From Alphaproteobacteria bacterium (lineage in GTDB: Bacteria; Pseudomonadota; Alphaproteobacteria; SP197), in the NCBI GenBank assembly GCA_965228895.1, contig OZ245842.1, positions 704,001 to 768,000 on the forward strand: a stretch of DNA of 64,000 bases, read 5' to 3'. The position numbers and the translations under genes were made by a program. Positions 9,781-45,876 of the stretch are shown here, piece after piece (the first letter of the stretch is position 1; the number at the start of each line of letters is the position of its first letter). The notes below the pieces were generated by a model, which had not been told where the DNA came from, ran no database searches, and saw only the letters and a program-made list of their open reading frames with translations.

Positions 9781-12278
<2,498 letters not shown>

Positions 12279-25616: not shown

Positions 25617-26150
25617 ATGGCCGTGAACGTGATCGATCTGACCTTGCCGATGCACGCGGAGATGGACGTTTATCCCGGCGATCCGGCGCCGCGCTACGAC
25701 TTGATCGAGGTTTTTGCGGAGACCGGCTGGAACATGCGCAGGCTGGAGATGAACGGCCATGACGGTACCCATGTCAACGTACCCCTGCACGCCACGGCCG
25801 ACGGCAGGAACCTCGACGATTACGATCTCTCCAATTTTGTCGGCGAAGCCGTCCTCTATGAATCCGATGCCGATATCGCGCCCGACCTGGGGTTGATCTT
25901 CCACGCCACGGACATCTCCTGGTCAAGCGCCAAGGCAATTGTCGATATCGGCCCGCGTTTCATCGGGTTGCCGGCACGGTTCGAGTTCGACATCGCTATC
26001 GAGCGGTGGTTGTTGGAACGCGATGTCATCTCATTCGAGCGGCTGATCAACACCGACCGACTGCCCAAACGTTTCTTTTTTCACGGCGCGCCGCTCAAGA
26101 TTGTCCAGGGCGACGGCAGTCCGGTTCGCGCTTATGCCATCACCGACTAA
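25617..26150 (+). CDS. Cyclase family metal hydrolase (kynurenine formamidase-like, short)
   Basis: IDLT, YPGDP, HDGTHVNVPLH, PLKIVQGDGSPVRAYA. Confidence 0.85.
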   Translation: MAVNVIDLTLPMHAEMDVYPGDPAPRYDLIEVFAETGWNMRRLEMNGHDGTHVNVPLHATADGRNLDDYDLSNFVGEAVLYESDADIAPDLGLIFHATDISWSSAKAIVDIGPRFIGLPARFEFDIAIERWLLERDVISFERLINTDRLPKRFFFHGAPLKIVQGDGSPVRAYAITD

Positions 26151-26203
26151 ACAAGATGCCATTCCCGCCTGATTGGGAGCGTGGACCACCTTTGCATCGA
26201 TCC

Positions 26204-26255
26204 TTATCAATGTAAGATATCAGACCTTAAGATTTATCAATCTAAGCGCATTGAT
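26204..26255. promoter_or_regulatory. Putative operator region upstream of importer 1
   Basis: TTATCAATGTAAG/TTATCAATCTAAG direct repeat 30 bp apart, plus ATCAAT-N8-ATTGAT dyad. Confidence 0.45.
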
Positions 26256-26377
26256 GACGATAAACCCGTGAATGGGCGGCAATCGACCGTGCCAAACCAT
26301 AGGCGTAGCCAATGGCTGCCCTTCGGTTTGTCGCGGTTATCGCCGTGAACTCCAAAAGAACCCAGGGAGGCGGGAGT

Positions 26378-27442
26378 ATGTTCAAGCGTTTTGAGGGTAA
26401 GAGTTTTGCCGAGCGGCATGGTGCCGGCCGGCTGAGCACCATGGTGGCCGGCATCGCGGTCGGCGCTGCCATCGGTATTGGCACCTTGATGACGGCGCCG
26501 GCTCAGGCTGAAGAAGGTGTGATCCGTTGCGCCTATCCCTATTGGTTCGGCTTCGCGCCGGTGCCGGTGGCGAGCGCCATGGGCTATTTCGAAGAGGAAG
26601 GCCTTGAGGTCACGACCGTCTTCGATAACGACCGCGCGAACGTCTATCCCGGTCTCGAAATCGGCGATCTCGACTGCACCATGCGCACGATCGGCGAGCA
26701 TATGTCGCGCCCGCTGGCCGAAGACTCGAACTTCGTCGTCATCGGCCTGATCGATATCTCCGTTGGCGCCGACGGTGTTGTCGCCGCACCCGATGTCAAC
26801 GATGTTACCGACCTGATCGGCCGCACCTTCGCCGGCGAGATCAACCACCCGGGCACATTGATGACAGCGCACGCGTTGAGGGAAGCCGGTCACAGCTTTT
26901 CCGACGTCAACGTCCGACTGATCAACACCGATGACAGCCCGGCCGTCTTCGAAGACGACGATGTCGCCGCCGTCGCGACGTGGGAACCGATGATGAGCGA
27001 CATTGTCGCCAACACGTCGCGCGAGGGTTCGAAGATCCTGCTGTCGTCGGCAGACTTCAACGGCCTGATCACCGACGTCGTCATCGTCAACAAGGAAGAC
27101 TATGAGGCCGACCGCGAGAAGTACGCGGCGTTCATGCGCGGCATCTATCGCGCCGTCGATCTCTACAACAACGACCCCGAGAAGTTCCTCGAGGTCGCGG
27201 CGCCGGCCTATGAGGTCACGCCCGAGCAGATGAAGGTCGATATTGAAGGCGTCTACTACACCTCCTACGAGGATGCGGTCGAATACTTCGGCACCGATGG
27301 TCAGCCGGCCAAGCTTGCCGACGTGGTCAACGCGCTGAACGATATTCAGGTCGAGCTCGACCTGATGGACGCGCCGATCTCGATGGAGGCCATGTCGGAC
27401 CCGAGCCTGACCGACGGTCTGTTCGACGGCAAGACGCGCTAA
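26378..27442 (+). CDS. ABC transporter substrate-binding protein, NitT/TauT family
   Basis: Signal peptide; YWFGFAP, DISVGADG, ATWEP, LITDV; very acidic. Confidence 0.88.
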   Translation: MFKRFEGKSFAERHGAGRLSTMVAGIAVGAAIGIGTLMTAPAQAEEGVIRCAYPYWFGFAPVPVASAMGYFEEEGLEVTTVFDNDRANVYPGLEIGDLDCTMRTIGEHMSRPLAEDSNFVVIGLIDISVGADGVVAAPDVNDVTDLIGRTFAGEINHPGTLMTAHALREAGHSFSDVNVRLINTDDSPAVFEDDDVAAVATWEPMMSDIVANTSREGSKILLSSADFNGLITDVVIVNKEDYEADREKYAAFMRGIYRAVDLYNNDPEKFLEVAAPAYEVTPEQMKVDIEGVYYTSYEDAVEYFGTDGQPAKLADVVNALNDIQVELDLMDAPISMEAMSDPSLTDGLFDGKTR

Positions 27443-27474
27443 CCGTCTACCGTCTGACCTTTTTGTGTATCCCA

Positions 27475-27509
27475 CACCGGCTTTGCGGGCTTAGCCTGCA
27501 AAGCCGGTG
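27475..27509 (+). terminator. Stem-loop after the SBP gene (mRNA-stabilising or partial terminator)
   Basis: CACCGGCTTTGCGGGC-TTA-GCCTGCAAAGCCGGTG, 16-bp stem with one G-U; no U-tract downstream. Confidence 0.55.
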
Positions 27510-27574
27510 GCGGGCGCCTGTCATGTGTGTCCGGCTCCGGCGCACCGCGCGCTCCATCAAGGAGGACTGACCTG

Positions 27575-28363
27575 ATGGCCCTCAGATCGGCGCTGTTCGC
27601 CTATCGCGGCGAATCGTCGCCCCGTACCGACCTCGTCCTGGCCGTGGTCGCCTTGGCTGGTTTCTTTATCGTCTGGTACTTGATCTCAGTTTTCGAGATC
27701 GTGTCGCAGCGGTTCCTGCCGACACCCATCGACGTTGTGGTGGCGCTATGGACCATGCTGACGGTCAACAACTTCATCGAGGATATCTGGATCTCGGTGG
27801 CGCGGGTTTGGGGCGCGTTCGCGCTCTCGGTCGTGTTTGCCGTGCCGATCGGCATCTGGATGAGCAGCTACCGCATCGTCGGCACGCTGATCGAGCCGGT
27901 TGTCGACTTTATCCGCTATCTACCCGTGCCGGCCCTCGTACCGCTCTTGATTATCTGGTTCGGCATTGGCGAAGCCTCGAAGATCGCGGTGTTGTTTATG
28001 GGGACGTTCTTTCAGCTTGTTTTGCTGATCGCCGACGATGCCAAGCGCGTGCCTAAGGAATTCATCGAGATCGGCTATACCCTTGGCGGCAAGCCACGCA
28101 ACATCACCAAGGACATCGTGTTCCGGTCGATGATGCCGAACCTGGTCGACAACCTCAGGATCACACTGGGTTGGTGTTGGACCTGGATCATCGTTGCCGA
28201 GATCGTCGCCGCCAACAGCGGCATTGGGCACGCTATCTGGTCGATGCGCCGGTTCCTCAAGACGCCGGAAGTGATGGCCGGTATTCTGACCATCGGCATT
28301 ATCGGCCTGGTGACCGATCAGTTGATCCGTGTCGCCCATCGCCGTTACTTCCGGTACCTCTAG
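27575..28363 (+). CDS. ABC permease, NitT/TauT family
   Basis: AGGAGG RBS; RYLPVPALVPL, WFGIGE, AEIVAANSGIG. Confidence 0.9.
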   Translation: MALRSALFAYRGESSPRTDLVLAVVALAGFFIVWYLISVFEIVSQRFLPTPIDVVVALWTMLTVNNFIEDIWISVARVWGAFALSVVFAVPIGIWMSSYRIVGTLIEPVVDFIRYLPVPALVPLLIIWFGIGEASKIAVLFMGTFFQLVLLIADDAKRVPKEFIEIGYTLGGKPRNITKDIVFRSMMPNLVDNLRITLGWCWTWIIVAEIVAANSGIGHAIWSMRRFLKTPEVMAGILTIGIIGLVTDQLIRVAHRRYFRYL

Positions 28364-28372
28364 GAGCAGGCG

Positions 28373-29185
28373 ATGGTCGATCCATCAAGATTTGTCGATG
28401 TCCGTGGTGTCTCGAAAGTGTTTGAGACGGGCGGGCGTGTCGTCGAACCGATTGCCGTCATCAACGACGTCTCGATGACCTTGGCAGAGGGTGAATTCGT
28501 CGTCTATCTCGGCCCTTCCGGCTGCGGCAAGACGACCCTGATGCGCATCGTCGGCGGCCTGGAGACTGCGTCATCCGGCGAGATCTGGCTGGCTGACGAG
28601 AAGGTCACCGGGCCTGATCGGCGCAAGGGCATGGTGTTTCAGACCTACACCTCGTTTCCCTGGCTGACGGTCTCGGAAAACATTCACTTCGGCACCAAGT
28701 ACCGCACCGACATTTCGCCGAAGCAGAAGCAAGAGATTTCCGACCACTATCTCGACCTCGTCGGCCTCAACAAGTTCGCCGACTTTCACGTCAACCGCAT
28801 CTCGGGCGGTATGCGCCAACGTGTCGCTATTGCGCGAACCCTTGCCGCTGAGCCCGACATTTTGCTGATGGACGAACCGTTTGGCGCCCTTGATGCACAG
28901 ACCCGTGAACATCTGCAGGTCCAGATGCGCGAGATCTCGCGGATCGAGAACAAGACGGTGATTTTTGTGACCCACGATGTCGAGGAGGCGATCTTTCTTG
29001 CTGATCGCATCGTGATCTTTTCCGCGCGCCCGGCGACGATTGTCGAAGAAATCGACGTGACCCAAAAGCTGCCGGTTCACCGCGACATGACGACCAAGGA
29101 GACAGAGGACTTCTTCCACCTGCGCAACCATGTGCGTGACGTCATGCGACACCTGGAGACCGATGACGATGCGGTGGACGTGTAG
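28373..29185 (+). CDS. ABC ATP-binding protein, NitT/TauT family
   Basis: GPSGCGKT, ISGGMRQR, MDEPFGALD, VTHD. Confidence 0.93.
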   Translation: MVDPSRFVDVRGVSKVFETGGRVVEPIAVINDVSMTLAEGEFVVYLGPSGCGKTTLMRIVGGLETASSGEIWLADEKVTGPDRRKGMVFQTYTSFPWLTVSENIHFGTKYRTDISPKQKQEISDHYLDLVGLNKFADFHVNRISGGMRQRVAIARTLAAEPDILLMDEPFGALDAQTREHLQVQMREISRIENKTVIFVTHDVEEAIFLADRIVIFSARPATIVEEIDVTQKLPVHRDMTTKETEDFFHLRNHVRDVMRHLETDDDAVDV

Positions 29186-29971
29186 GTGACCGGCATGGCG
29201 ACCATGGGACTTGAAGGCAAAAAGGTGGTGATCACCGGCGGTAGCCGCGGGGTGGGATTGGGGATTGCTGAAGGGTTCGCCGGCGTTGGCTGTGACCTCA
29301 CGCTGATCGCCCTGGATGACGAGGTCGAGGACGTCGCCGCCCAACTGGCGGACAAGTACGGTTGCCCCGTGCGCGGCTTTCTATGCGACATCACCGATCG
29401 CGGCAGCTTGGACGCGGTGGCGCAGCAGATCGACCGGGTCGATGTGCTCGTCAACAACGCTGGCCTAGAACTCATCACGCCAATTGAAGACGAAGACCCG
29501 GATATCGAAGAGACGTTCCGACGCATCGTCGACATCAACGTCATGGGGACCTACTACGTCACACGGCGTTGCCTGCCCAAGATGCCGGATGGTGGGCGCA
29601 TCATCCTGACCGCATCGCAGTGGGCGAAGTCGGCGGTCGGCGAGTTCAGCGCCTATTGCGCGTCAAAACACGCCAACCTGGGTTTCATGCGCAGCCTGGC
29701 CAAGGAACTGGGGCCGCGCGGCATCAGCGTCAACGCGGTTTGCCCAGGCTGGGTCCGCACCATCGCCAGCATGCGTTCGCTCGCTGCCATGGCGCGCCGC
29801 GTCGACCGCGCCGAGAGCGACTTGTTGGATGAGATTGTCGCGGCCCAGGCGTTCCCCGGATTGATGGAGCCGCGTGAGATGGCCGACACCTATCTGTTCC
29901 TGGCTTCCGATGCGGCGCGCAACATTACCGGCCAAGCCATTACCGTCGACCGTGGTGACATATTGGTCTGA
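29186..29971 (+). CDS. Short-chain dehydrogenase/reductase (start may be 29195 or 29204)
   Basis: TGGSRGVG, NNAG, YCASK, VCPGWVRT. Confidence 0.9.
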   Translation: MTGMATMGLEGKKVVITGGSRGVGLGIAEGFAGVGCDLTLIALDDEVEDVAAQLADKYGCPVRGFLCDITDRGSLDAVAQQIDRVDVLVNNAGLELITPIEDEDPDIEETFRRIVDINVMGTYYVTRRCLPKMPDGGRIILTASQWAKSAVGEFSAYCASKHANLGFMRSLAKELGPRGISVNAVCPGWVRTIASMRSLAAMARRVDRAESDLLDEIVAAQAFPGLMEPREMADTYLFLASDAARNITGQAITVDRGDILV

Positions 29972-29985
29972 AACGCGCGGACCCC

Positions 29986-31347
29986 TCAGGGTCCAATCAC
30001 GACCAGCTTCAAGTCGTTCACGTTGGTGCCGGTAGCACCGGTCATAATCAGCGATCCCATACCGTCCAGAGCCGGCGTGGCGTTGTGGCGCCGCAGCACG
30101 TCGTGGAGGTCGATGCCGGCCGCTGTTGCGCGTGCCATGCTCGATCCATCAACCAGACCGCCCGCTGCATCCGAAGGGCCGTCGGAACCGTCGGTATCGA
30201 TCCCCAACAGGGCGACATCATCCAGACCATCCAGATGGATAGCACCGGCTACGGCGAATTCCTGGTTGGGACCGCCTACACCGTGTGCGCCGTCGATCGT
30301 GACAGTGGTCTCGCCACCGCCGATCAGAACGCAAGGCGCAGGGATGGGATGACCGCTCAGCCGGACCTCATGCGCCATGGCTGCCATGGTTCGTCCGAGC
30401 TCACGGCTCTCACCCTCGAACGCCGTCGATAACAGGAGCGGCTGAAAGCCAAGCGCCTCGGCGCGCCGGGCGGCGGCGTGGCATGCGGCATCGGCGGCGA
30501 CGAGGACATGATCAATCCGATCGAGATGGGCGAGGTCGGCGTCTTTCGGTGTCTCCTGCGAAGGTCCGGCATGTTTCAGGTAATCGGCGATGGCGGCTGG
30601 AATGATCGGCCACAGGTTGTACTTGTCGAGCGTATGCCGTGCATCGTCGAAGGTTGCGGTATCGGGGACCGTCGGGTCGGTGATGTAGTCGAGAGCATCG
30701 CCGATAACGTCGGACACCGTCACGTTGATCAGGATGGTCCCAGCAGGCAACGCAGCAGCCAGCCGCCCCCCTTTCACGGTACTGACGTGTTTGCGCACAG
30801 CATTGATTTCGCGAATGTTCGCACCGCAGGTCAGCAGTTTGCGATTAAGCGCCTTCTTGTCGTCAAGCGAAACGCCGGAAACAGGCGAGACGAACAAAGC
30901 CGAGCTACCGCCCGTCACCGCAGCGATGACCACATCGCCCGGCCGCACGGCCTTCAGCAGATCGACGGTGCGCCCGGCTCCTTCCAATGACATCTCGTCG
31001 GGCACCGGGTGGGCGGCGTGCATGAGTTCGATATGCGTCAGACGACCTTGTTGCCCGGTCTTGCAGACGACAAGACCTGCGTCAACGCGTGCACCGAGCA
31101 TGTCATCAAGGACCTTGGCAATAGGAAACGTCGCCTTGCCGGTACCGATGACAAAGACCCGTCGCCCATCCAGATCAATGGCGCGTTGGCCGATCTTCAG
31201 GACGTTACCGTCAAGGGAGAGAAGGCTGGCGGCCGCTGCGCCAGGATCGCAAGCTGAGAGTGCGCTTTCGACGAGATCGAGCGCGACCTCACGCGCCGGA
31301 TTGGCGGCCTGAAGCAGTGCCTCGCGATTGGTAACGATCGGCTTCAT
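29986..31347 (-). CDS. Type-2 glycerate kinase family protein (DUF4147/MOFRL, TtuD-like)
   Basis: GTGKA, AAHPVPD, GGSSAL, INAVRKH, SDVIGD, GGETTV, TDGSDG, TGTNVND. Confidence 0.9.
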   Translation of the reverse strand: MKPIVTNREALLQAANPAREVALDLVESALSACDPGAAAASLLSLDGNVLKIGQRAIDLDGRRVFVIGTGKATFPIAKVLDDMLGARVDAGLVVCKTGQQGRLTHIELMHAAHPVPDEMSLEGAGRTVDLLKAVRPGDVVIAAVTGGSSALFVSPVSGVSLDDKKALNRKLLTCGANIREINAVRKHVSTVKGGRLAAALPAGTILINVTVSDVIGDALDYITDPTVPDTATFDDARHTLDKYNLWPIIPAAIADYLKHAGPSQETPKDADLAHLDRIDHVLVAADAACHAAARRAEALGFQPLLLSTAFEGESRELGRTMAAMAHEVRLSGHPIPAPCVLIGGGETTVTIDGAHGVGGPNQEFAVAGAIHLDGLDDVALLGIDTDGSDGPSDAAGGLVDGSSMARATAAGIDLHDVLRRHNATPALDGMGSLIMTGATGTNVNDLKLVVIGP

Positions 31348-31380
31348 GATGCATCGACCCGTCGTGCGGTCGACGTGGCG

Positions 31381-32664
31381 TCAGCCAGGCCGGTGAAAAT
31401 TGTGTCCGGCATAGGCGGCTGTCGCGCCGAGTTCCTCTTCGATCAGCAGCAGGCGGTTGTGTTTGGCGGTCCGTTCGCCGCGCACAGGCATGCCGGTCTT
31501 GATCTGGCCGCTGTTGAGTGCGACCACGAGGTCGGAAATGAGCGGATCTTCGGTCTCGCCGGACCGTTCGGAGACCTGCACGCCATAGCCATGGCGGTAG
31601 GCGAAGGCGGCGGCATCGAGCGCTTCGCTCAATGAGCCGATCTGGTTGACCTTGAACAGCATGGCGTTCGCGGCGCCGATGGCGACACCCATGCGCAGCC
31701 GTTCGACATTGGTGACGAACAAATCGTCGCCGACAATCTGCGTCTGCGGCAGTTCGTTGGTGACCTTGACGAACCCGTCGAGGTCGTCTTCATCGAGCGG
31801 GTCCTCCATGGAACCCAACGGATACTTGTCGGCGACTTGTTTATAGAGATCGATCAGGGCGTCACGGTCATAGTCGGTGTCGTCGAGAACGTAGACATCG
31901 CGCTCCTTGTCGAACCAATGGGTCGATGCGCAGTCGAGGCCGTAGACGATGTCTTCGCCGAAACCTGGCCGGTAGCCTGCCGCTTCGCAGGCGCGCTGCA
32001 TGAACTCGAAGGGCTCCCAGATGCCGCGCATGGGCGTGGCGAACCCGCCTTCATCGCCGGTGTTGGTGGCGAGAATGCCGTACTTCTCAATGACGAGATC
32101 GCGCAGCGCCTCGTTGATCTCCGTGGTGATCTGAAGCGCGTGAGCGTAGCTCTCCGCGCCCACGGGCATGATGATGAATTCTTGGATCTCCAGGTCGTTG
32201 GCGGTCAGCTTGCCGCCGTTCAGACAATTCATCAGCGGTACCGGCAGCACCCGGCAAAGCGGGTTGATATAGCGATAGAGCGGCAGGCCGGAGACCTGTG
32301 CGCCGGCGCGCGCGACTGCCAGAGAGACACCCAGGATCGCGTTGGCGCCCAGGCGGTTCTTGTTCGGTGTGCCGTCGAGTTCGCACATCACCTGGTCGAT
32401 CCGCCGCTGTTCGGTGACGTCCATGCCCAGGACCGCTTCGGCGATCTCGCCGGTGACATTGGAGACGGCCTGGCGAACGCCCTGGCCGAAGTAGCGGTTA
32501 CCGCCATCGTGCAGCACGCGGGCTTCGTGGGTGCCGGTCGAGCGGCCCTGGGGCACATCGGCGCGCCCGGCCATGATGCCGTCGACCCAGACATCGACCT
32601 GGACCGTCGGCCAGCCCCGGCAATCGATGATTTCGCGGGCTCGGATGTCTGAGATTTCGTTCAT
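31381..32664 (-). CDS. eno: Enolase paralog with altered substrate-binding residues
   Basis: Full enolase fold (REIID, GANAILGVS, QEF, GDEGG, GDDL, KVNQIG, QIKTG) but PQGRST, NGGKL and SERSGE deviate; symbol denotes family only. Confidence 0.85.
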   Translation of the reverse strand: MNEISDIRAREIIDCRGWPTVQVDVWVDGIMAGRADVPQGRSTGTHEARVLHDGGNRYFGQGVRQAVSNVTGEIAEAVLGMDVTEQRRIDQVMCELDGTPNKNRLGANAILGVSLAVARAGAQVSGLPLYRYINPLCRVLPVPLMNCLNGGKLTANDLEIQEFIIMPVGAESYAHALQITTEINEALRDLVIEKYGILATNTGDEGGFATPMRGIWEPFEFMQRACEAAGYRPGFGEDIVYGLDCASTHWFDKERDVYVLDDTDYDRDALIDLYKQVADKYPLGSMEDPLDEDDLDGFVKVTNELPQTQIVGDDLFVTNVERLRMGVAIGAANAMLFKVNQIGSLSEALDAAAFAYRHGYGVQVSERSGETEDPLISDLVVALNSGQIKTGMPVRGERTAKHNRLLLIEEELGATAAYAGHNFHRPG

Positions 32665-32750
32665 GGCGTGTCTTTCCGATCCGGTATGGACAAACCAGCG
32701 GTAGCGCAGGTTCTGGGAAACGTTGGCTCGTGGCCAGGACGGTCGTTGAT

Positions 32751-33707
32751 CTAGCGCCGCTGGTCAAACGATTCGGCGAGCAGGCACAAAACTTCATACA
32801 TCATGGTGGCGCCGACCAAGGCTGTATTGCCGCTGGGATCGAACGGCGGCGCGACCTCAACGATGTCGCCGCCGCGCAGATCGAGGCCGCGCAGGCCGCG
32901 CAGAAGTTTCTGAGCATCGATCGTCGTCATGCCGCCGACTTCCGGTGTGCCGGTGCCCGGCGCGTAAACGGGATCGAGGCCATCGACGTCGAACGAGATA
33001 TAGGTCGGGCCGTCGCCGACAACACGGCGCGCTTCGGCAATCACCTTGTCGATCCCAATCTCGGCGACTTCCTCCATGAACACGACGCGCATGCCGCTCT
33101 CTATGGAGAAATCCCAGCCTTCATTCGTGTTCTGCGCGCCGCGAATGCCAATCTGCACGGTGCGCTTGGGGTCGAGCAGGCCGTCCTCGACAGCACGGCG
33201 GAAGGGCGCGCCATGGGTGAACTTGCAGCCCAGGAACTCGTCCCATGTATCGGTGTGGGCGTCGATGTGCACCATGCCAAGCGGCTGGTCAGTCGCGATC
33301 GCGCCAAAGATCGGATAGGTGATCGAGTGGTCGCCGCCGGCAGACAGTGGCACGACACCTTGAGCGTGCAAACGGGTGTAGTAGTCCCGGATGTCGTCCA
33401 TCACCGCTTCGATCTCAAAGACGCGGTGAAACAGCACATCGCCCGCATCGACGACCTTGCAGAGTTCGTAGGGATTGACCCGCGTCACGTGATGGATGGC
33501 GCGCATCAGGCTCGACATGTTGCGGATTTCACGCGGGCCGTGCCGTGCGCCCGGCCGGTTGGTCGTGCCGCCGTCAAACGGCACGCCGATCATGGCGATG
33601 TCAACATCGTCAAATTCGGTTGCCAGGGGTGCCCGCATGAAAGTCGGGATTTCGGTATAGCGCGGCGCGGTCATCGGGTCGCGGCGTTGTTCGCTGTTCG
33701 ATGTCAC
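32751..33707 (-). CDS. Ureohydrolase, guanidinopropionase (GpuA)-like
   Basis: GGDHS, DAHTD, DVDGLDP, APGTGTPE; segments GGTTNRPGARHGPREIRNMSSLMR and ALVGATMMYEVLCLLA resemble P. aeruginosa GpuA from recall. Confidence 0.88.
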   Translation of the reverse strand: MTSNSEQRRDPMTAPRYTEIPTFMRAPLATEFDDVDIAMIGVPFDGGTTNRPGARHGPREIRNMSSLMRAIHHVTRVNPYELCKVVDAGDVLFHRVFEIEAVMDDIRDYYTRLHAQGVVPLSAGGDHSITYPIFGAIATDQPLGMVHIDAHTDTWDEFLGCKFTHGAPFRRAVEDGLLDPKRTVQIGIRGAQNTNEGWDFSIESGMRVVFMEEVAEIGIDKVIAEARRVVGDGPTYISFDVDGLDPVYAPGTGTPEVGGMTTIDAQKLLRGLRGLDLRGGDIVEVAPPFDPSGNTALVGATMMYEVLCLLAESFDQRR

Positions 33708-33796
33708 CGGCTTGAACCCCCCTCAATTTCCCGTCTAATGCGGCGGATCGTGGCATCGACAATGTGTTGATAAAATCTGATTTAACGCATAATTAA

Positions 33797-33812
33797 TTCG
33801 ATATCCGTCGAA
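33797..33812. promoter_or_regulatory. Putative LysR site in a divergent promoter
   Basis: TTCGA-TATCCG-TCGAA dyad in AT-rich gap. Confidence 0.4.
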
Positions 33813-33837
33813 CTGGGAAACGCTGGGGGTCCATGCC

Positions 33838-34779
33838 ATGCTGCATTCTCTCCACACACCCGATATTCGCCTGCTGCGCGTCTTCATGACCGTCGTCGAA
33901 TGCGGCGGGTTTTCGGCGGCGCAGATCGCGCTCAATGTCGGTCAGTCGACGATCAGCACGCAGATGAGCGATCTGGAAAGCCGGCTTGGGATGCGTCTGT
34001 GCCGGCGTGGGCGCAGCGGTTTCGCGCTGACCGAAGACGGCAAGTTCGTCTATGAGTCCGCGAAATCCCTGTTTCGCTCGATCGATCATTTTACCTCTGC
34101 GGTCAACGGCGCGCGTGGCGGGCTCAGCGGCGAGCTGCGTATCGCGTTTGCCGACGTGCTCTATCGCAACCCGGACTTTCGCCTGGCCCAGGCGATTGCC
34201 GTCTTTCTGGAGCGCGGCGCCGATGTTCGTTTCGATCTCAGCACGGCCAACCCTCTGGACATCGAACATGGCGTTCTCGGCGAACGTTACCACTTGGGCA
34301 TTCATACCTATCCCAGCCATGTCCCCGGCCTGCGTTACTATCCAGCGTTCAAGGAAGAGCAGACCCTCTATTGCGGGCGCAAACACCCGCTGTTCGAGCG
34401 GATCGGCAAGGGCCGGCTCAGCCTCGACGAGGTCCAGCAATTCGATTATGTGCAGCGGTCGTACTATGGCGGTGCCTTGTCGACCGGACCGTTCAAGCCG
34501 GCCAACATTGCGGCGTCGGCCGACAACATGGAAGCACTGCTGGTGCTCCTGATGTCCGGGCATTTTATCGGGCATCTGCCGACCGCCTGGGCCAGCGAGT
34601 ACGTCGCGCAAGGCGAACTGGCGCCGATTCTGCCCAAGAAGTCGCGCTACTACACGCAGTTCGAGATAGCGGTGCGTGTCGGTGGTCCCCAATCCATGCT
34701 GATCGAGACGTTTTTGTCGGACCTCAGGGAGCTGCTTCCAGGCGGCGGTTCTGACAAAAGCCTGGCGAAGGCGAGTTAG
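33838..34779 (+). CDS. LysR family regulator (GbuR/GpuR-like)
   Basis: DIRLLRVFMTVVECGGFSAAQ...LCRRGRSGF; divergent from the ureohydrolase. Confidence 0.9.
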   Translation: MLHSLHTPDIRLLRVFMTVVECGGFSAAQIALNVGQSTISTQMSDLESRLGMRLCRRGRSGFALTEDGKFVYESAKSLFRSIDHFTSAVNGARGGLSGELRIAFADVLYRNPDFRLAQAIAVFLERGADVRFDLSTANPLDIEHGVLGERYHLGIHTYPSHVPGLRYYPAFKEEQTLYCGRKHPLFERIGKGRLSLDEVQQFDYVQRSYYGGALSTGPFKPANIAASADNMEALLVLLMSGHFIGHLPTAWASEYVAQGELAPILPKKSRYYTQFEIAVRVGGPQSMLIETFLSDLRELLPGGGSDKSLAKAS

Positions 34780-34909
34780 GTCAGCGATGACCGATGTATC
34801 GATCGTCAGCCACCTATTCCAGCAGGGGCCGCTGCGCTGGCACGATAACGGTGGGTACGCTCCATCCCGCGTGCCCAACGCCGGCTGACGCCGAATAAAG
34901 GAATCCAGG

Positions 34910-36172
34910 ATGCTGCCCAACGTCGTTCGTGTTCGCCAACCCATCAAGACCGACCCGCTCAGCGATATCAAAGCGGCAGTCCATGGTGGTGTCGCCAAAC
35001 TCGACTTGGCGTCGCGGACACAACCCGGCGACACAGTCGCGGTCGGCTGCAGCAGCCGTGGCATCGCGAACTACGGACATATCGTCGCGCACACGGTCGC
35101 GGCGCTGAAGCAGGCGGGCCTCAAACCCTTCCTGTTTCCGGCCATGGGCAGCCATGGCGCGGCGACCGCCGAGGGCCAGCGCCAGGTCCTGATCGGACAG
35201 GGTATCGAGCCCGCCGAACTCGATGTCACCATCGAGTCATCGCTCGACGTCGATCAGATCGCCGCGCTGGACGACATGGGGATTCCCGTCCTGATCGACC
35301 GCCATGCCAACGGCGCCGACCACATCGTCCTGATCAACCGCGTGAAGTCGCACACGGAGTTCACCCACAGCTTCGAAAGCGGTCTGATGAAGATGATGGC
35401 GATCGGCATGGGCAAGGAGGAGGGCGCCACGCTCTATCACAAGGCGTTCATGGTTCACGGCTACGCGCCGGTCATTCGCGCCATCGCCGATACGATCCTC
35501 GACACCGGCAAGATCCTGTTTGGCGTCGGCATTGTCGAGGACGGGCGCGCGCAAACCGCCGGTGTCGAGATCTTATCCAGCGAAGACCTGATCGCCGGGG
35601 AGGAGGCGCTGCTGCGCCAGTCCAAAGCGTTCGAGCCACGCCTACCGCTCGACGACATCGACGTGTTGCTGATCGACGAGATGGGCAAGGACATCTCCGG
35701 TTCCGGTTTCGACACCAAGGTTGTCGGCCGGATCAACATGCCGCTTGTGACCGCCGACCCCGAAACGCCGCGTATCAAACGCATCGTCGTGTGCGACCTG
35801 ACCGCCGCGTCAGCGGGCAATGCGGACGGCGTCGGCAGTGCCGACTTCATCACCAGACGCCTCTACGACAAAATCGATATCAAGGCACTCTACGTGAATG
35901 CTATCGCCGGTTCGGAACCGGAGCACGCGCGTATTCCCATGGTCATGGAAACGGCGCGCGAGGCGACCGAAGCCGCGGCCGGATCGGTTGGTCTGATCGC
36001 AACGGACGATCTCAAGCTGGTTCGCATTCAAAACACCCTTCGCCTCGAGGCGATCGACGTGTCAACGGCATGCCTGCCGGCTCTGGCTGGCCGCCCGGAC
36101 ATCACGGCGACCGGCGAACCGGCCGAACTGGCTTTCGATGGCGATGGTGAACTCCACCCATTTGATGGCTAG
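34910..36172 (+). CDS. LarA-superfamily nickel-pincer-dependent isomerase (DUF2088/DUF362-type)
   Basis: SRGIAN, PAMGSHG, NRVKSH, ESGLMKM..IGMGK, GKDISGSG; directly upstream of larC-larE-larB. Confidence 0.78.
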   Translation: MLPNVVRVRQPIKTDPLSDIKAAVHGGVAKLDLASRTQPGDTVAVGCSSRGIANYGHIVAHTVAALKQAGLKPFLFPAMGSHGAATAEGQRQVLIGQGIEPAELDVTIESSLDVDQIAALDDMGIPVLIDRHANGADHIVLINRVKSHTEFTHSFESGLMKMMAIGMGKEEGATLYHKAFMVHGYAPVIRAIADTILDTGKILFGVGIVEDGRAQTAGVEILSSEDLIAGEEALLRQSKAFEPRLPLDDIDVLLIDEMGKDISGSGFDTKVVGRINMPLVTADPETPRIKRIVVCDLTAASAGNADGVGSADFITRRLYDKIDIKALYVNAIAGSEPEHARIPMVMETAREATEAAAGSVGLIATDDLKLVRIQNTLRLEAIDVSTACLPALAGRPDITATGEPAELAFDGDGELHPFDG

Positions 36173-36214
36173 ACTCGAACGGTCCTTCGTTGACCTGGGA
36201 GCCACCACAACGGC

Positions 36215-37429
36215 ATGACAGCACCGCGCCATATCCACCTCGACATGCTTGGCGGCATTGCCGGCGATATGTTCGCCGCGGCGATGCTTGATGCGGTCCC
36301 GTCATCGCGTTCCGGCCTGTCCGAGGCGCTTTCGGCCGACGGCTTGGCGTCACTCGCCAAGGTGACATGGTCGGACGCCAGCAATGGCGGCATGGCCGGT
36401 GTCCATTTTTCCGTTAAGCCGCTTCACGCAGGCGGCCGCGATCACGATCACCGGTCCTATCGCGATGTCCTGAACATCCTGGCCGGCCTGCCGTTGGGCG
36501 ATACCGTCCGTGACCGCGCTCAGGCCATCTTCACCCTGCTCGCCGACGCCGAGGCGGCGGTTCACGGTGTCGACCGCGCGGATGTGGTGTTTCACGAGGT
36601 CGGCGCCGTCGACTCGATCATCGATATCGTCGCCGGCGCCTGGCTGATCGAGGCGGTCGCGCCCTGCACCTGGTCGTCGTCGCCGGTTCCGCTGGGATCG
36701 GGGCGTGTCCGGACCGACCACGGACCGCTCCCGGTGCCCGCGCCAGCCACGGCTCTGCTGCTGAAGGATATGCCGACCTTTGTCGACGGGATCGCCGGCG
36801 AACGGGTGACGCCGACCGGCGCGGCGCTGTTGAGGAACCTCAATCCGTCATTCGACGGTCCAGCGGCGGTGATGGCCTTGAACGCCACGGGTCACGGCCT
36901 TGGCACACGCCAGTTGGACGGCGTTGCCAATCTGCTGCGCGTGCTCGTGTTTGAAAGCAGCGTTTCGCAAGGGCAAGACGAGATTCTGTGCTGCACCTTC
37001 GAGATCGACGATCAGACACCGGAGGATCTGGCAGTCGGTCTCGATCGGCTGCGTGCTGTCGACGGTGTCGTCGACGTCTTGCAGATGTCTGCCATCGGCA
37101 AGCACGGGCGCCAGTGTACGCATATTCAGATCCTCGCCACGCCGGGACGCCTCGAACCGGTGGCCGAGGCCATCTTCCAGGAGACGACGACGCTGGGGCT
37201 CAGGTGGCAGCGCATGGCGCGACGTGTTCTCGCGCGTAACACCGTCGGAACCGACGGCGCCGGAACGTCCGTCGCCGTCAAGCTGGCAAAACGGCCGGAC
37301 GGCGTAACAACCGCGAAAGCGGAGATGGGCGATCTTGTCGATACACCTGGTGGTCACGAAGGCCGGCGTGTTGCACGTGCCAAGGCGGAAGGGTTGGCGC
37401 GCAATGGGGAAGGCGGGCGCAATGGCTGA
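36215..37429 (+). CDS. larC: Nickel insertion protein LarC (full length, single ORF)
   Basis: GIAGDMF, HDHR, FHEVGAVDSIIDI, HGPLPVPAPAT, TPTGAA, EIDDQTPE, ETTTLGLR. Confidence 0.92.
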   Translation: MTAPRHIHLDMLGGIAGDMFAAAMLDAVPSSRSGLSEALSADGLASLAKVTWSDASNGGMAGVHFSVKPLHAGGRDHDHRSYRDVLNILAGLPLGDTVRDRAQAIFTLLADAEAAVHGVDRADVVFHEVGAVDSIIDIVAGAWLIEAVAPCTWSSSPVPLGSGRVRTDHGPLPVPAPATALLLKDMPTFVDGIAGERVTPTGAALLRNLNPSFDGPAAVMALNATGHGLGTRQLDGVANLLRVLVFESSVSQGQDEILCCTFEIDDQTPEDLAVGLDRLRAVDGVVDVLQMSAIGKHGRQCTHIQILATPGRLEPVAEAIFQETTTLGLRWQRMARRVLARNTVGTDGAGTSVAVKLAKRPDGVTTAKAEMGDLVDTPGGHEGRRVARAKAEGLARNGEGGRNG

Positions 37430-38270
37430 CGTCAAGGCCGGCCTCTTGGCGCTTCTCGCTCAACCCAAGGGCACGGCCCTTCTGGACGTCTTGTCGGGGG
37501 TTGGCGACAAGGCGCTCGCGGTCAGTGGCGGTGTCGACAGCATGACACTCGCCGTTATCGCCCACCGTGCCGATCCCGAGAGCTCGACCATTTGCCATGC
37601 TGTGTCGCCGGCGGTGCCGCCGGAAGCGACGGAACGGGTCAGGCAATACGCCGAGAAGGAGGGTTGGCGCCTCGACCTGATTGACGCCGGTGAGTTTGAC
37701 GATCCGCGTTATCTCGCCAACCCGCTCGACCGCTGTTTCTTCTGCAAGACCGATCTTTACGGCGCCATCGCCGCAGGACGCGCGGGGACGACCTTGATGT
37801 CGGGCACCAATCTCGACGATCTCGGCGATTTCCGGCCGGGCCTGAAGGCTGCGGCGAACCACGATGTCATACATCCGTTCGTTGAAGCGAATTTCACCAA
37901 GGCCGACATTCGCGCGGCGGCCGATGCGCTTGGTCTGAGCGACATTAAGGTACTGCCCGCCATGCCGTGCCTGGCAAGCAGGATCGAGACGGGCCTTGCC
38001 GTTTCCCCGGACCTCGTGCGTAGCGTGCACGCCGCCGAGACGCTGGTTGCCAAGCACGTCGACGTTGCGACCGTGCGCTGCCGGGTCGCGCACAACGGCA
38101 TCCGCATCGAACTTGATGAGGATGCGCTCGCGGGCTTGAGTGGCCCAAGTCGAGACATGCTTGCGGACAAGATCGCTCAACTTTTCAGCCGGACCGATAC
38201 GGTACCTGGCGTTCTGTTTGCCGCCTACAAACAGGGTAGCGCGTTCATCGGCAAACCCGGCGATGACTGA
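37422..38270 (+). CDS. larE: NPN sulfur insertase LarE (CxxC-C type)
   Basis: SGGVDS PP-loop, RCFFCK, GTNLDDLGDFRPG, PCLASR; overlaps larC stop. Confidence 0.88.
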   Translation: MADVKAGLLALLAQPKGTALLDVLSGVGDKALAVSGGVDSMTLAVIAHRADPESSTICHAVSPAVPPEATERVRQYAEKEGWRLDLIDAGEFDDPRYLANPLDRCFFCKTDLYGAIAAGRAGTTLMSGTNLDDLGDFRPGLKAAANHDVIHPFVEANFTKADIRAAADALGLSDIKVLPAMPCLASRIETGLAVSPDLVRSVHAAETLVAKHVDVATVRCRVAHNGIRIELDEDALAGLSGPSRDMLADKIAQLFSRTDTVPGVLFAAYKQGSAFIGKPGDD

Positions 38271-38934
38271 GACGCCGGCGTTCCGGTTTGACCGTGCGCG
38301 CGAATCGCGGATCGGTTTTGGCGAAGCGGTGTTCTGCGAGAGCAAAACCGCCGAGCAGATTGCGGCGATCCTGCATGAAGTCGGCGAGGATACGCCGATC
38401 CTGCTGACCAGGTTGAGTGTCGAGAAGGCCGACGCGCTGCCGCAGGCCCTGCGCAACCGCCTCGATTTCGATGATTTGTCACGGACCGCCTATCTACGGC
38501 CCCGGCATCCGCTGCGCGATACCGCGCGTGTGGCCGTCTTGAGCGGGGGAACCTCCGATTTGCCGGTCGCGCACGAGGCGGTCAGAACGCTGGGGTTTCA
38601 CGGCGAACCCAGCCAGATCCATCACGATGTCGGCGTCGCCGGCTTGTGGCGGTTGGAGGCGTGCCTGGATGACATCCGCGCCATGCCGTTGGTCATCGTG
38701 ACAGCGGGCATGGAGGGTGCCCTGGTCAGCGTCGTCGCGGGCCTGGTGCCCGGCGTCGTGATCGCCCTGCCGACGTCGGTCGGCTATGGCGCGGCGGAAG
38801 GTGGGCGTACCGCCATGTTTGCCGCGCTCACGTCTTGCGCGCCGGGCATCACGGTCGTCAACATCGACAATGGCTACGGCGCAGCGTGCGCCGCGCTGCG
38901 GCATCTCAACATGCTGGATCGCAGAAGCGGCTGA
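38263..38934 (+). CDS. larB: NaAD carboxylase/hydrolase LarB (PurE-like fold)
   Basis: EAVFCESKT, GTSDLPVA, DVGVAG, AGMEGAL, PTSVGYG, SCAPG, NIDNGYGAA. Confidence 0.93.
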   Translation: MTETPAFRFDRARESRIGFGEAVFCESKTAEQIAAILHEVGEDTPILLTRLSVEKADALPQALRNRLDFDDLSRTAYLRPRHPLRDTARVAVLSGGTSDLPVAHEAVRTLGFHGEPSQIHHDVGVAGLWRLEACLDDIRAMPLVIVTAGMEGALVSVVAGLVPGVVIALPTSVGYGAAEGGRTAMFAALTSCAPGITVVNIDNGYGAACAALRHLNMLDRRSG

Positions 38935-38940
38935 CGGCGC

Positions 38941-39906
38941 TCAGGCGCTCTTGCCCTTTTCGTGGAAGATGAAGCCGAGCACGTTCATTAGGAACTGAGC
39001 AGCCAGGAACGCGGTCGATCCCGTGTGATCGTAGTCCGGTGCGACCTCGACAAAGTCGATGCCCACAATGTCGCCCTTCTTGGAGAGACCCTGAAACAGC
39101 TCCAGCACCTCGTAGTAAAGGAAACCGCCATGACTTGGCGTCCCGGTGCCCGGCGCGATCGACGGGTCGAACCCGTCGACATCGATGGTGGCGTAGTAGC
39201 GCACGCCGTCAGGAATACGCTCGAGCACGCCCTGGGTGCCCAACCGCCGGACATCGCGCACCGAGAGAATATCGGAGCCTGCCTTGCGGGCGGCCGCATA
39301 GTCGTCGCGGTTCGATGACGAGACGTTGCGGATGCCGAGCTGACTGAAACCGGTGACGTGTTTCATTTCGGATGCCCGGCGCAGGGGGTTGCCGTGGCCG
39401 TAGCGCACGCCGTGCCGCTCGTCGACGAAGTCCAGATGCGCGTCGATATGGATGATGTGCACGGGTTCCTGGTCGGCGAAGGCGCGAATGCAGGGAATAT
39501 GCACCGAATGATCGCCGCCCAGGACGACCGGCAGCGCGCCGGCATCAAGGATGGCGCGCACGCCCTTCTCGATATTGTCATGACTCTGGGTCGTGTCGGT
39601 ATGGATCATGTCGGCATCGCCGATATCAACCATGCGTACCTGATCGACCGGCATGTAGCTGATGTCATCCTCGAAGTCGTAGGCGCCGCCGTGGCCGAAC
39701 GAGAACAGCGTGGACGCCTCGCGGATGGCGCGGGGCCCGAAACGGGCGCCGGCGCGGTACTGGGTGCCCATGTCGAATGGCGCGCCCAGCACGGCGACGT
39801 CGGCCTTGATGGCCGACCAATCCAGACACGGCGGCTGCTTGCCGAAGGTGCAGTGGCCGACGAATGGCAGGTCGAGACGTCCTTCTTCGTAAGCGTTCGA
39901 GGTCAC
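38941..39906 (-). CDS. Ureohydrolase / agmatinase family protein (second, distinct subfamily)
   Basis: GARFGP, GGDHS, DAHLD, DVDGFDP, APGTGTPS; GTG 39906 with AAGGGGG RBS (alternative start 39924). Confidence 0.88.
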   Translation of the reverse strand: MTSNAYEEGRLDLPFVGHCTFGKQPPCLDWSAIKADVAVLGAPFDMGTQYRAGARFGPRAIREASTLFSFGHGGAYDFEDDISYMPVDQVRMVDIGDADMIHTDTTQSHDNIEKGVRAILDAGALPVVLGGDHSVHIPCIRAFADQEPVHIIHIDAHLDFVDERHGVRYGHGNPLRRASEMKHVTGFSQLGIRNVSSSNRDDYAAARKAGSDILSVRDVRRLGTQGVLERIPDGVRYYATIDVDGFDPSIAPGTGTPSHGGFLYYEVLELFQGLSKKGDIVGIDFVEVAPDYDHTGSTAFLAAQFLMNVLGFIFHEKGKSA

Positions 39907-40018
39907 GAACACCCCCTTTGTCAATTCACTATGCCAAGGCTACGCGGGCAGGTAAGGCCACACGTTTAGGGCCGAAGCACCACCCAGATCAAGCGATCTG
40001 GCGAAGTTCAGCCGGTGT

Positions 40019-42367: not shown

Positions 42368-42384
42368 GTCAGGTCCTCCTTCGC

Positions 42385-42876
42385 TCAGTCGGCCGCGCGC
42401 CTGCCGGCGCTATCGCTCGCCCGCATCTTTTCCGCCGCTTTCATCACGGCATCGACGATGTAGGGATAGGCGCCGCAGCGGCAGATGTTGCCGCTCATGG
42501 CGATCGCCGTTTCCTCGCGTGTCGGGTCGGGGTTTGCCGCCAGAAACGCCTTGGCGCTCATGACAAAACCGGGCGTGCAGAAGGCGCACTGAAACCCCTG
42601 TTCTTCGATGAAGGCCTCTTGGATCGGGTGCAGGTCGTCGCCTGTGCCCAGACCTTCGATGGTCTGAAGGTCGTGCTGTTCGGCCTGGTTGACGAGGACC
42701 ATGCATGAGGTGACGGGTTCGCCGTCGACCAGCACCGTGCACGAGCCGCACTCACCTTCCGAACAGGAGACGCGCACGCCAATAAGGCCGAGGTCGTTGC
42801 GCAGGACGTCGGCCAGCGTGCGGTTGGGCGCCACGTCCAACTCATGCGTCTCGCCATTGACCTTGAGTGTCGTCAT
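42385..42876 (-). CDS. Xanthine dehydrogenase family 2x[2Fe-2S] subunit
   Basis: CSEGECGSC...C, QCAFCTPG, GNICRC. Confidence 0.95.
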   Translation of the reverse strand: MTTLKVNGETHELDVAPNRTLADVLRNDLGLIGVRVSCSEGECGSCTVLVDGEPVTSCMVLVNQAEQHDLQTIEGLGTGDDLHPIQEAFIEEQGFQCAFCTPGFVMSAKAFLAANPDPTREETAIAMSGNICRCGAYPYIVDAVMKAAEKMRASDSAGRRAAD

Positions 42877-43760
42877 GTGACGTTCCCTCCGAGCTTGATA
42901 ATCGAATCGGTGAGAGCGCGCTTGACCATGACCTTGATCATGGCGCGGCGATAATCAGCGCTGGCGCGTACATCGGAGATCGGCTTGGCATCGGCCGCGG
43001 CCAGTTCGCCGGCCTTGACCAGCAAGCCGCCATCGATGTCGGAGAGGTTCGCACCCTCAAGCACCGCCTCCGCGGCGGCGGAGCGAATGATGATGGGCGC
43101 CACGGCACCGAGGGCGATACGCGTCTTCACGATATCTGATTGCGCGTCGGCCCAAACGGCGGTCGATGCGTTGACCAGCGCAATATCGACGACGGTCCGG
43201 TCGATGCGCCGATAAGATGCCTCGACGCGCTGGTCGGCGGGCAGGGGTATGACGATCTCCGAGAGCAAATCGCCGTTGGCGACGACCGTGTGGTTCACGC
43301 CCTCGAAAAAATCCTCCATGGCGACCCGGCGTTCACCCTCGGATCCAAAAATGACGGCCTCGGCATCCAAAGCGACAAAGGCCGGCGACAGATCGGCTGC
43401 CGGCGATGCGTTGCACAGATTGCCGCCGACCGTCGCGATCGATCGGGTCTGCGGCGTGCACATCAGCTTGGTGATGTCGCTTAATGTCTTGAGGTGAGGG
43501 TGATGGTCAGCGGCGTTTTCGAGCGCTGCGAGCGTCGCCATCGCGCCGACACGAATCGAATTGTCGCCGACCTCGATAAACCGCAGTTCGTCGAGGAAGG
43601 TGAGGTCGATGCAGTGGTCGAGCGACACCTCCTCGCGTTGCCACAGCAGGGTCATGTCGGTGCCACCGGCCCAGTAACGCGCGCCGTCACCCAGACTGGC
43701 GCGCATGGCCACGGCCTCCTGTAGCGAGGACGGGCGCGAATAGTCGAACTGAGAACGCAT
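42873..43760 (-). CDS. Xanthine dehydrogenase family FAD-binding subunit
   Basis: Start MRSQFDY; AGGTD, ATVGGNLCNASPAAD, PISDVRASADYR. Confidence 0.92.
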   Translation of the reverse strand: MRSQFDYSRPSSLQEAVAMRASLGDGARYWAGGTDMTLLWQREEVSLDHCIDLTFLDELRFIEVGDNSIRVGAMATLAALENAADHHPHLKTLSDITKLMCTPQTRSIATVGGNLCNASPAADLSPAFVALDAEAVIFGSEGERRVAMEDFFEGVNHTVVANGDLLSEIVIPLPADQRVEASYRRIDRTVVDIALVNASTAVWADAQSDIVKTRIALGAVAPIIIRSAAAEAVLEGANLSDIDGGLLVKAGELAAADAKPISDVRASADYRRAMIKVMVKRALTDSIIKLGGNVT

Positions 43761-43791
43761 TATCTTTCTCCCACACCGTCTCAACAGGAGA

Positions 43792-43833: not shown

Positions 43834-43845
43834 AGGGTGGTCAAC

Positions 43846-45873: not shown

Positions 45874-45876
45874 GAC

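Follow-up and report, generated by a model that had tools for sequence, protein, structure and literature searches.

The 64,000-nucleotide window analysed here ("the window" being this whole stretch, positions 704,001 to 768,000 of contig OZ245842.1 in the alphaproteobacterial assembly GCA_965228895.1) carries an operon in which an enolase paralogue with altered active-site residues, here called ENOv, is followed by a kinase of the DUF4147/MOFRL type, and it is well supported that this kinase and the altered enolase work together and are distinct from the housekeeping enzymes. That the two end in phosphoenolpyruvate (PEP) is well supported too; their starting compound is probably a small hydroxy acid and may be isoserine. 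For the locus as a whole we favour, at a probability of about 0.4, the reading that a LysR regulator controls an island of catabolic genes for a small 2-hydroxy acid with a guanidino group. In the simplest case this would be 3-guanidino-2-hydroxypropanoate, broken down via isoserine to PEP. Open reading frames (ORFs) are mechanical calls, with uncertain starts in some cases; the operon, from its first gene to its last, and the adjoining control region and regulator gene are as follows:

32751..33707, minus strand: arginase-family ureohydrolase UH1, 318 amino acids, first gene of the operon (Pfam Arginase, E 6.8e-89)
31381..32664, minus strand: enolase paralogue ENOv, 427 amino acids (Pfam Enolase_N, E 2.6e-51, and Enolase_C, E 1.4e-95)
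29986..31347, minus strand: DUF4147/MOFRL kinase, a relative of class II glycerate-2-kinases, 453 amino acids, last gene of the operon (Pfam, E 3.5e-64 and 4e-32)
33708..33837, no strand: control region of 130 bp from which UH1 and the LysR gene diverge
33838..34779, plus strand: LysR-family regulator (Pfam HTH_1 and LysR_substrate), first gene of the lar-side operon and divergent from the UH1 operon

A first-pass annotation of this DNA, made from the letters alone, had described three co-oriented genes with short gaps that diverge from a LysR gene, and the ORF boundaries agree with it exactly; in the ORF listing the gaps are 86 bp between UH1 and ENOv and 33 bp between ENOv and the kinase, and the LysR gene lies 130 bp away.

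ENOv scores 504 bits against the NCBIfam enolase model TIGR01060 (cut-off 300), has the archaeal enolase of M. jannaschii (2pa6, 466 bits) as its best PDB match and shares about 46-51% identity with those canonical-type representatives that score best. When aligned to 2pa6 it retains the Mg ligands S42, D244, E287 and D314, together with K338, E205, E162, K389 and the phosphate-binding R367/S368, whose counterparts in yeast enolase are S39, D246, E295 and D320 (Mg ligands), K345 (the base), E211 (the acid), E168, K396 and R374/S375. Against the same structure it reads PQGRSTG for PSGASTG, GGKLTAN for GGKHAGN and SERSGETED for SHRSGETED, changes which in yeast numbering are A38R, H159L and H373E. 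In enolase, the C3 hydroxyl of 2-phosphoglycerate lies among His373, Glu168 and Glu211, with His159 in contact with the phosphate; both of the conserved histidines, His159 and His373, are replaced in the window protein, by L153 and E366 respectively. The "enolase variant" of the first-pass annotation is confirmed.

A scan of species-representative genomes yielded 40 loci, all on contigs of metagenome-assembled genomes (MAGs): 29 intact loci of the E366 type (L001-L023 and L025-L030), 3 fragments (L024, L036 and L040), 4 with a canonical His/His enolase (L031-L034) and 4 of a third type (L035 and L037-L039). The nearest locus to the window is in an alphaproteobacterial MAG (95% identity). Column by column, ENOv-type sequences (120) differed cleanly from canonical ones (102) at C15, R41, L153, T154, E366 and H402, and W18 replaces the canonical Asn of the DSRGNPT motif; two further flagged columns were alignment gaps and were set aside. 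The substitutions away from the two histidines are Ser to Cys15, Asn to Trp18, Ala to Arg41 and Tyr to His402. The full signature (C15/W18/R41/L153/E366/H402) is present in 118 of the 120 close homologues, the exceptions being one with Asp at 366 and one lacking its N-terminus, and taken singly E366 is found in 119 and L153 in all 120. All 29 intact clade members from the loci carry E366 and C15, R41 is present in most members (it is missing in L023 and L027), and the His is kept in all four canonical loci.

By FastTree, with 108 enolase-family rows, the E366 proteins form a single clade of 29 rows (SH-like support 94), placed among other enolase-like proteins that lack the His, with the canonical enolases across the midpoint root; fragments from L024, L030, L034, L036 and L040 and representatives outside 400-470 residues were left out of this tree. 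ENOv shares with enolase (EC 4.2.1.11) the two-domain fold, the length, the Mg ligands, the catalytic Lys/Glu and the phosphate-binding Arg-Ser, but it differs in the clade-wide Glu for His373, in having mostly Leu for His159, in C15, W18, R41 and H402, and in its setting, which is a regulated catabolic operon where a kinase gene nearly always follows, and in two cultured strains a plasmid. Among the best 150 representatives listed (50% clustering), the His373 position is His in 110, Ala in 16 and Glu in 4. Those with Ala, for example P0153, P0160, P0173 and P0214, usually have Asp for Glu168 and make up another sizeable group of non-canonical enolases.

The pairing of ENOv with the kinase is near-obligate. 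In 27 of the 29 intact loci the kinase gene lies directly downstream of ENOv, with gaps of -133 to +143 bp; of the two exceptions, L022 has one intervening gene and L018 has no kinase within the 800 bp available. No kinase lies beside the canonical enolase in any of its four loci. Carriers of the pair include Alphaproteobacteria, Arenicellales, Acidobacteriota, a Mycobacteriaceae-labelled MAG, Desulfobacterales, Aerophobetes, Anaerolineae and Acidimicrobiales, and its patchy taxonomic spread and its occurrence on plasmids make it evidently a mobile pair. Dehalococcoidia MAGs (L035 4062-6809, L037 2313-5059 and L038 8454-11257) hold a third family of enolase-like proteins, with 37-39% identity, in which yeast E168 is Thr, H373 is Asn and the Arg-Ser is swapped to Ser-Arg; here a MOFRL-like kinase lies directly upstream in all three loci. 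The pairing of a kinase with an enolase-like protein therefore seems to be a recurrent design.

The kinase itself matches 1x3l (324 bits) and 2b8n (271 bits) in the PDB and falls below the NCBIfam equivalog cut-offs for glycerate 2-kinase (213 against 550 and 159 against 670), both models being archaeal. The Agrobacterium vitis tartrate (ttu) operon, with its kinase gene ttuD and pyruvate kinase gene ttuE, is similar in that a DUF4147/MOFRL kinase stands in a catabolic operon that would feed lower glycolysis, but the kinase here is tied to a dedicated non-canonical enolase and lies far below those glycerate 2-kinase cut-offs. According to PMC2063504, the MOFRL-family members assayed so far are glycerate 2-kinases, and this favours a more ordinary reading, which we consider somewhat less likely than the isoserine route, in which a D-glycerate 2-kinase and a working, pathway-dedicated phosphopyruvate hydratase would take glycerate to PEP. 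The glycerate would come from hydroxypyruvate or tartronate semialdehyde, with the GpuA-like enzyme giving beta-alanine or isoserine, an unlinked transaminase making the semialdehyde and a short-chain dehydrogenase (SDR) encoded just beyond the kinase reducing it, so that the SDR gains a role. Such a hydratase agrees with the TIGR01060 score above its cut-off and with the retention in ENOv of all the metal ligands and of the Lys/Glu acid-base pair. What a glycerate branch leaves unexplained is why the kinase should be tied to an enolase of its own in 27 of 29 loci, given a housekeeping enolase, when the canonical type is never paired (0 of 4), and why the His-to-Glu change should be clade-wide; the window also has no transaminase to serve it.

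The best solved relative of UH1 is the 3-guanidinopropionase of P. aeruginosa (3nip, 409 bits over residues 3-314 in the PDB search), ahead of the guanidinobutyrase 3nio (293 bits) and of agmatinases (205 bits or less), and because of this order the first-pass label "GpuA-like" is right. Its metal-binding motifs GGDHS, DAHTD and SFDVDGLDP are intact in the 3nip alignment. The window resembles the P. aeruginosa gpuA system (3nip/3niq) in having a close full-length homologue of the hydrolase with a LysR regulator adjoining, but here the hydrolase gene comes first in an operon that includes the enolase/kinase pair and lies opposite lar genes (listed below), and this context suggests a 2-hydroxylated substrate, the 2-hydroxy analogue of 3-guanidinopropionate. 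In P. aeruginosa, gpuA sits with only a permease gene and gpuR. The first-pass annotation had noted the lack of a beta-alanine aminotransferase, and indeed there is no aminotransferase in the window (no such domain was found among the 62 ORF translations scanned, nor any urease domain); but this absence is weak evidence, since P. aeruginosa is not known to cluster one with gpuA either.

Orthologues of UH1 (75-96% identity) occupy the same position in L001, L002, L006, L007 and L025, and UH1 stands beside the ENOv/kinase pair in just these 5 of the 29 loci, all from one subclade (support 92) that also includes the window and L008 and is marked by Gln39. UH1 is a lineage-specific feeder outside the conserved core, and thus the "three-gene operon" of the first-pass annotation is really a two-gene core with a feeder. 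We also considered, and rejected, a scheme in which guanidine leaves and UH1 hydrolyses it, UH1 being a close homologue of GpuA and absent from most loci of the pair.

The genes that flank the operon and its regulator, none of which (ABC transporter, SDR or lar genes) entered the first-pass account, are the following:

26312..29185, plus strand: ATP-binding cassette (ABC) importer, with an NMT1/SsuA-type binding protein (26312-27442), a permease (27527-28363) and an ATPase (28373-29185), by Pfam and NCBIfam
29186..29971, plus strand: short-chain dehydrogenase (SDR), last gene of the transporter operon (Pfam adh_short_C2, E 8e-51)
34910..36172, plus strand: distant LarA-family nickel-pincer-cofactor isomerase, a putative 2-hydroxy-acid racemase (NCBIfam "group 22" model NF052515)
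36215..37429, plus strand: LarC, nickel insertion enzyme for the nickel-pincer cofactor (Pfam Ni_insertion, E 2.2e-93; TIGR00299 and NF052512 above their cut-offs)
37335..38270 (ORF as listed), plus strand: LarE, cofactor sulfur transferase (TIGR00268, 225 bits against a cut-off of 150)
38140..38934 (ORF as listed), plus strand: LarB, cofactor carboxylase/hydrolase (NF033503, 243.6 bits against a cut-off of 175)

The importer genes are convergent with the UH1-ENOv-kinase operon. The whole layout of the window (LysR, LarA, UH1, ENOv, kinase and ABC genes) recurs in L001, L002, L006, L007 and L025, from Alphaproteobacteria and Arenicellales, and the proteins of these five loci are 50-96% identical to their window counterparts. 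LysR orthologues (50-96% identity) hold the same position in all five, and the binding protein, permease and ATPase of the ABC system are kept beside the kinase in five of five. The SDR is present in L001, L002, L007 and L025 (62-92% identity), and none was detected at L006. The whole island is conserved, but its core is the ENOv/kinase pair. This conservation bears on a further reading, that UH1 is a plain 3-guanidinopropionase beside which the pair has merely inserted, with no pathway shared between the neighbours. The absence of UH1 from 24 of the 29 loci of the pair would suit it, as would the mobility of the pair, on plasmids and with patchy taxonomic spread; but gene order and short gaps are kept in five further genomes of two classes despite divergence to 50-77% identity, one divergent regulator region serves both sides, and we regard a chance insertion as very improbable.

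For the favoured route through isoserine we infer every substrate, the order of the steps and ammonium as the leaving group. The ABC system would import the guanidino 2-hydroxy acid, the GpuA-like ureohydrolase would take off urea to leave isoserine, and the LarA-family nickel-pincer enzyme would equilibrate the C2 stereocentre of the hydroxy acid. The MOFRL kinase would then phosphorylate the 2-hydroxyl, giving 2-phosphoisoserine, from which ENOv would abstract the C2 proton by means of its retained Lys and expel the C3 substituent as ammonium to form PEP. The third carboxylate that E366 places beside C3 suits an ammonium group. Since the window lacks an aminotransferase, only the isoserine reading makes the operon self-contained, and it is also the only one under which the operon is complete, in that the hydrolase would free the amine, the kinase activate C2 and the lyase expel ammonium. 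Such an isoserine-to-PEP route had been proposed in the first-pass annotation and it fits the gene identities, the layout, the Glu of ENOv, the kinase pairing, LarA, the amine-freeing neighbours and a pyruvate kinase gene on a plasmid (both described below); it is partly supported, and its three-gene unit has to be corrected.

The LarA-like protein scores 452 bits against NF052515 ("nickel pincer cofactor-dependent isomerase, group 22"; cut-off 400) and 29.6 bits against Pfam Lar_N, and a phmmer search of the PDB gave no match even at E 10. Its assignment therefore rests on a fold search. An AlphaFold model built with 10 homologues (pLDDT 79.9, pTM 0.81) matched only LarA-family structures in the PDB, in the top ten ranks and in every listed row to rank 18 (TM 0.44-0.57, 12-16% identity). 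Residues H82, H148, K161 and H177 are invariant in all ten sequences and, with a similar spacing, are candidate counterparts of the LarA positions H108/H174/K184/H200 (PMC7583248), where LarA enzymes have two catalytic His, the cofactor-binding Lys and the Ni-binding His. The likeness to the LarA superfamily lies in the fold, the NCBIfam match above cut-off and the adjacent larC, larE and larB, all directly downstream, but the solved members are only 12-16% identical to the window protein. Further LarA-like genes (55-57% identity) come directly after the kinase in L015, L019 and L026, and L022 has a more canonical LarA. As listed, the ORFs of LarE and LarB run into the preceding genes by about 95 and about 130 bp; with family matches that start only at residue 47 and residue 50, their true starts are probably later, at internal start codons.

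Known LarA enzymes invert C2 of 2-hydroxy acids (PMC7583248, PMC11770544), and this supports a chiral 2-hydroxy acid as the substrate of the kinase; PMC11770544 also has LarA-family enzymes that can racemize glycerate, which would suit the glycerate branch as well. Group 22 is given as "Unknown function" in Table S3 of PMC7583248, the NCBIfam numbering being possibly not that of the paper, and the available part of this supplement (Desguin 2020) lists no enolase, glycerate-kinase or arginase COG. For the group before group 23, the table gives a context of TRAP transporters and sugar kinases, unlike that of the window.

LarA also points to a stereochemical problem at C2, and this is one of the grounds for supposing that the pair handles some other three-carbon 2-hydroxy acid, one that the housekeeping enolase would not accept as its 2-phosphate. 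Candidates are L-glycerate, whose proton would be abstracted with opposite stereochemistry, and 3-sulfolactate, from which sulfite would be eliminated in a reversal of the first steps of coenzyme M biosynthesis; either would still yield PEP. Such a substrate would account for the strict pairing of the kinase with a non-canonical enolase and for the new Arg at position 41 in most members, although that Arg is absent in L023 and L027. Sulfolactate in particular would be in keeping with NMT1/SsuA-type binding proteins, relatives of sulfonate binders, in the window, L003 and L029, with the many Desulfobacterales among the carriers and with an Ldh_2 enzyme in L023 that scores best, at 272 bits and below cut-off, with L-sulfolactate dehydrogenase. 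However, an added Glu beside C3 poorly suits an anionic sulfonate, no sulfite exporter or sulfite reductase was found among the scanned neighbours, and because a ureohydrolase can yield only an amine neither acid explains the operon of the window; we consider both improbable.

The neighbours of the pair in other loci were surveyed with Pfam on 134 ORFs around the pair, and with NCBIfam. Apart from the Ldh_2 enzyme, the entries down to the PuuE-like genes are of a kind that cuts C-N bonds or acts on carbamoyl groups; Ldh_2 and the later entries produce 2-hydroxy acids or transfer amino groups:

L011, directly upstream of the pair: CN-hydrolase
L022, L028 and L029: creatininase-family genes
L022, between ENOv and the kinase: ornithine-carbamoyltransferase-like gene
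L013, directly after the kinase: carbamate kinase (374 bits against a cut-off of 358)
L005 and L009: hydantoinase A/B, caprolactamase type
L022: asparaginase_2
L028: 8-oxoguanine deaminase (554 bits against a cut-off of 532)
L023: MtmB-like methyltransferase and corrinoid protein
L023: the Ldh_2 enzyme mentioned above
L002 12602-13435, minus strand, and L006 12869-13312, minus strand: PuuE-like deacetylase-family genes, with the kinase on one side and the SDR/ABC genes on the other
L003 and L018: D-2-hydroxy-acid dehydrogenase
L017 and L021: PanE-like reductases
L005: shikimate-dehydrogenase-like gene
L011, L017 and L021: alanine dehydrogenases, above cut-off
L011: SHMT
L017 and L021: OCD-family genes
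L005 and L021: DAO
L008 and L026: class III transaminases

Where the neighbour is a carbamoyltransferase, a carbamate kinase, a CN-hydrolase or a creatininase, the setting points to an intermediate that bears an amine. The carbamate kinase can also be counted for the glycerate branch, as in the allantoin region of E. coli it co-occurs with a glycerate kinase. A route from allantoin and glyoxylate to glycerate, prompted by the carbamate kinase, carbamoyltransferase, Ldh_2, PuuE-like and 8-oxoguanine deaminase neighbours, was not adopted because the 134 neighbouring ORFs include no glyoxylate-carboligase-type thiamine pyrophosphate enzyme and no tartronate-semialdehyde-reductase-type gene, and the lack of such a domain set among them counts against the glycerate branch too. 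In L028, an Acidimicrobiales MAG, the 8-oxoguanine deaminase and a creatininase-family gene (4980-6464 and 9009-9965) precede the pair, which hints at a link to the breakdown of oxidised purines. Similar to the L002 and L006 genes is a polysaccharide-deacetylase-family protein of the window itself (48980-49882, minus strand, 19 kb off), which is weakly like PuuE-type allantoinases; these PuuE-like proteins may supply a ring-opening step for a cyclic precursor.

A tblastn search over plasmids found two E366-type copies, both in cultured strains. Plasmid 2 of P. caribensis MWAP64 has the string GntR, eno, DUF4147 and, further on, an ABC system, a D-amino-acid-dehydrogenase-like flavoenzyme, RidA, GhrA and GNAT. 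A 473-kb Salmonella plasmid (L042, NZ_CP022016.1, 11992-19966) has eno, MFS, DUF4147, a D-Ala-D-Ala-ligase paralogue (345 bits, above the subfamily cut-off), GntR, pyruvate kinase and GNAT, with insertion sequence elements nearby. As the pyruvate kinase stands in the same gene string, PEP is supported as the product of the pair, and this copy is in that respect like the A. vitis ttu operon; Salmonella also has a chromosomal housekeeping enolase. By megablast the eno-MFS-kinase stretch of this plasmid had no match in complete E. coli genomes and matched only its source record among plasmids. Positions 26000-38000 of the window, searched against plasmids in the same way, gave short ABC-ATPase fragments only and no close annotated relative.

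Several observations weigh against the isoserine route. UH1 is confined to its 5 of 29 loci; the change of His159 to Leu is not clade-wide, His being retained in L023, L027, L028 and L029; and since yeast H373N enolase keeps part of its activity, a Glu at that position need not abolish dehydration of 2-phosphoglycerate. The kinase shares all its large conserved motifs with P. horikoshii PH0495 (deposited as a hypothetical protein), and the conserved SDR has no part in the isoserine scheme. Reductases, alanine dehydrogenase, SHMT and transaminases adjoin the pair in many loci, as GhrA does on the P. caribensis plasmid, and the reductase, alanine dehydrogenase and transaminase neighbours fit hydroxypyruvate or glycerate as well or better, just as GhrA together with the D-amino-acid-dehydrogenase-like enzyme and RidA fits a glycerate route. 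Finally, no report of 3-guanidino-2-hydroxypropanoate as a natural product or metabolite was found in the full-text literature, from which, for this and the following searches, subscription journals were out of scope.

Searches of that literature for isoserine together with an enolase and a kinase in one route found none, those for a phosphoisoserine or an isoserine kinase likewise found none, and papers on isoserine catabolism showed no such route by title or abstract. When enolase homologues were searched for together with MOFRL or DUF4147, a single paper qualified, that on the glycerate kinase of T. tenax (PMC2063504), by way of MOFRL, and in the passages covered enolase figures only as an enzyme of glycolysis or of coupled assays. 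No description of a route from a hydroxy acid to PEP by way of a kinase and an altered enolase was thus found in the literature searched, and it is probably undescribed. A well-populated, conserved clade with a changed catalytic-site residue and its own kinase, across phyla and plasmids, points to an unrecognised route into PEP. The locus would also give a first physiological context to an uncharacterised LarA group and likely a new substrate class to GpuA-like ureohydrolases, and it calls for a correction of the automatic labels, now "phosphopyruvate hydratase" and "DUF4147 protein".

Enolase proper is usually treated as a one-reaction family. Somewhat more tentatively than the route itself, we suggest that ENOv could be a 2-phosphoisoserine ammonia-lyase forming PEP and its partner an isoserine 2-kinase, the two making up a mobile two-gene hub that in many phyla funnels N-substituted 3-amino-2-hydroxypropanoates into glycolysis. 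If so, the enolase family proper would gain in ENOv its first C-N lyase, and guanidino-, ureido-, amido- and other N-substituted 3-amino-2-hydroxypropanoates would enter glycolysis with the invested ATP regained from PEP. Possible sources of such compounds include 5-hydroxylated pyrimidines and 2,3-diaminopropionate.

The LysR regulator, which the first-pass annotation had likened to GpuR/GbuR, shows generic LysR domains and reached no NCBIfam equivalog cut-off. A sigma-70 consensus scan for promoters and terminators over 29800-35000 gave no more than shuffled sequence and no site in the divergent control region. An AT-rich dyad, TTAACGCATAATTAA, lies in that region at 33782-33796; it is identical in L001 and partly kept in L002, and is a candidate LysR box. 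At the other end of the operon the SDR and kinase genes converge, with just 14 bp (29972-29985) between their stop codons, and no terminator-like hairpin was found there in the consensus scan.

A second LysR-controlled operon lies beyond larB (38941-47129), with a ureohydrolase, UH2, at 38941-39924 (minus strand), Mo-hydroxylase subunits at 40019-44045 (minus strand), NMT1-type ABC genes at 43846-46824 (minus strand) and a LysR gene at 47129-48058 (plus strand). UH2 is of the agmatinase family, 34% identical to UH1, with the agmatinase 1wog as its best PDB match. This operon is not conserved beside the enolase/kinase pair in the other loci, and with its three-subunit enzyme of the xanthine-dehydrogenase family and its NMT1-type ABC transporter it possibly forms a route for an N-heterocycle that bears a guanidino or amino group.

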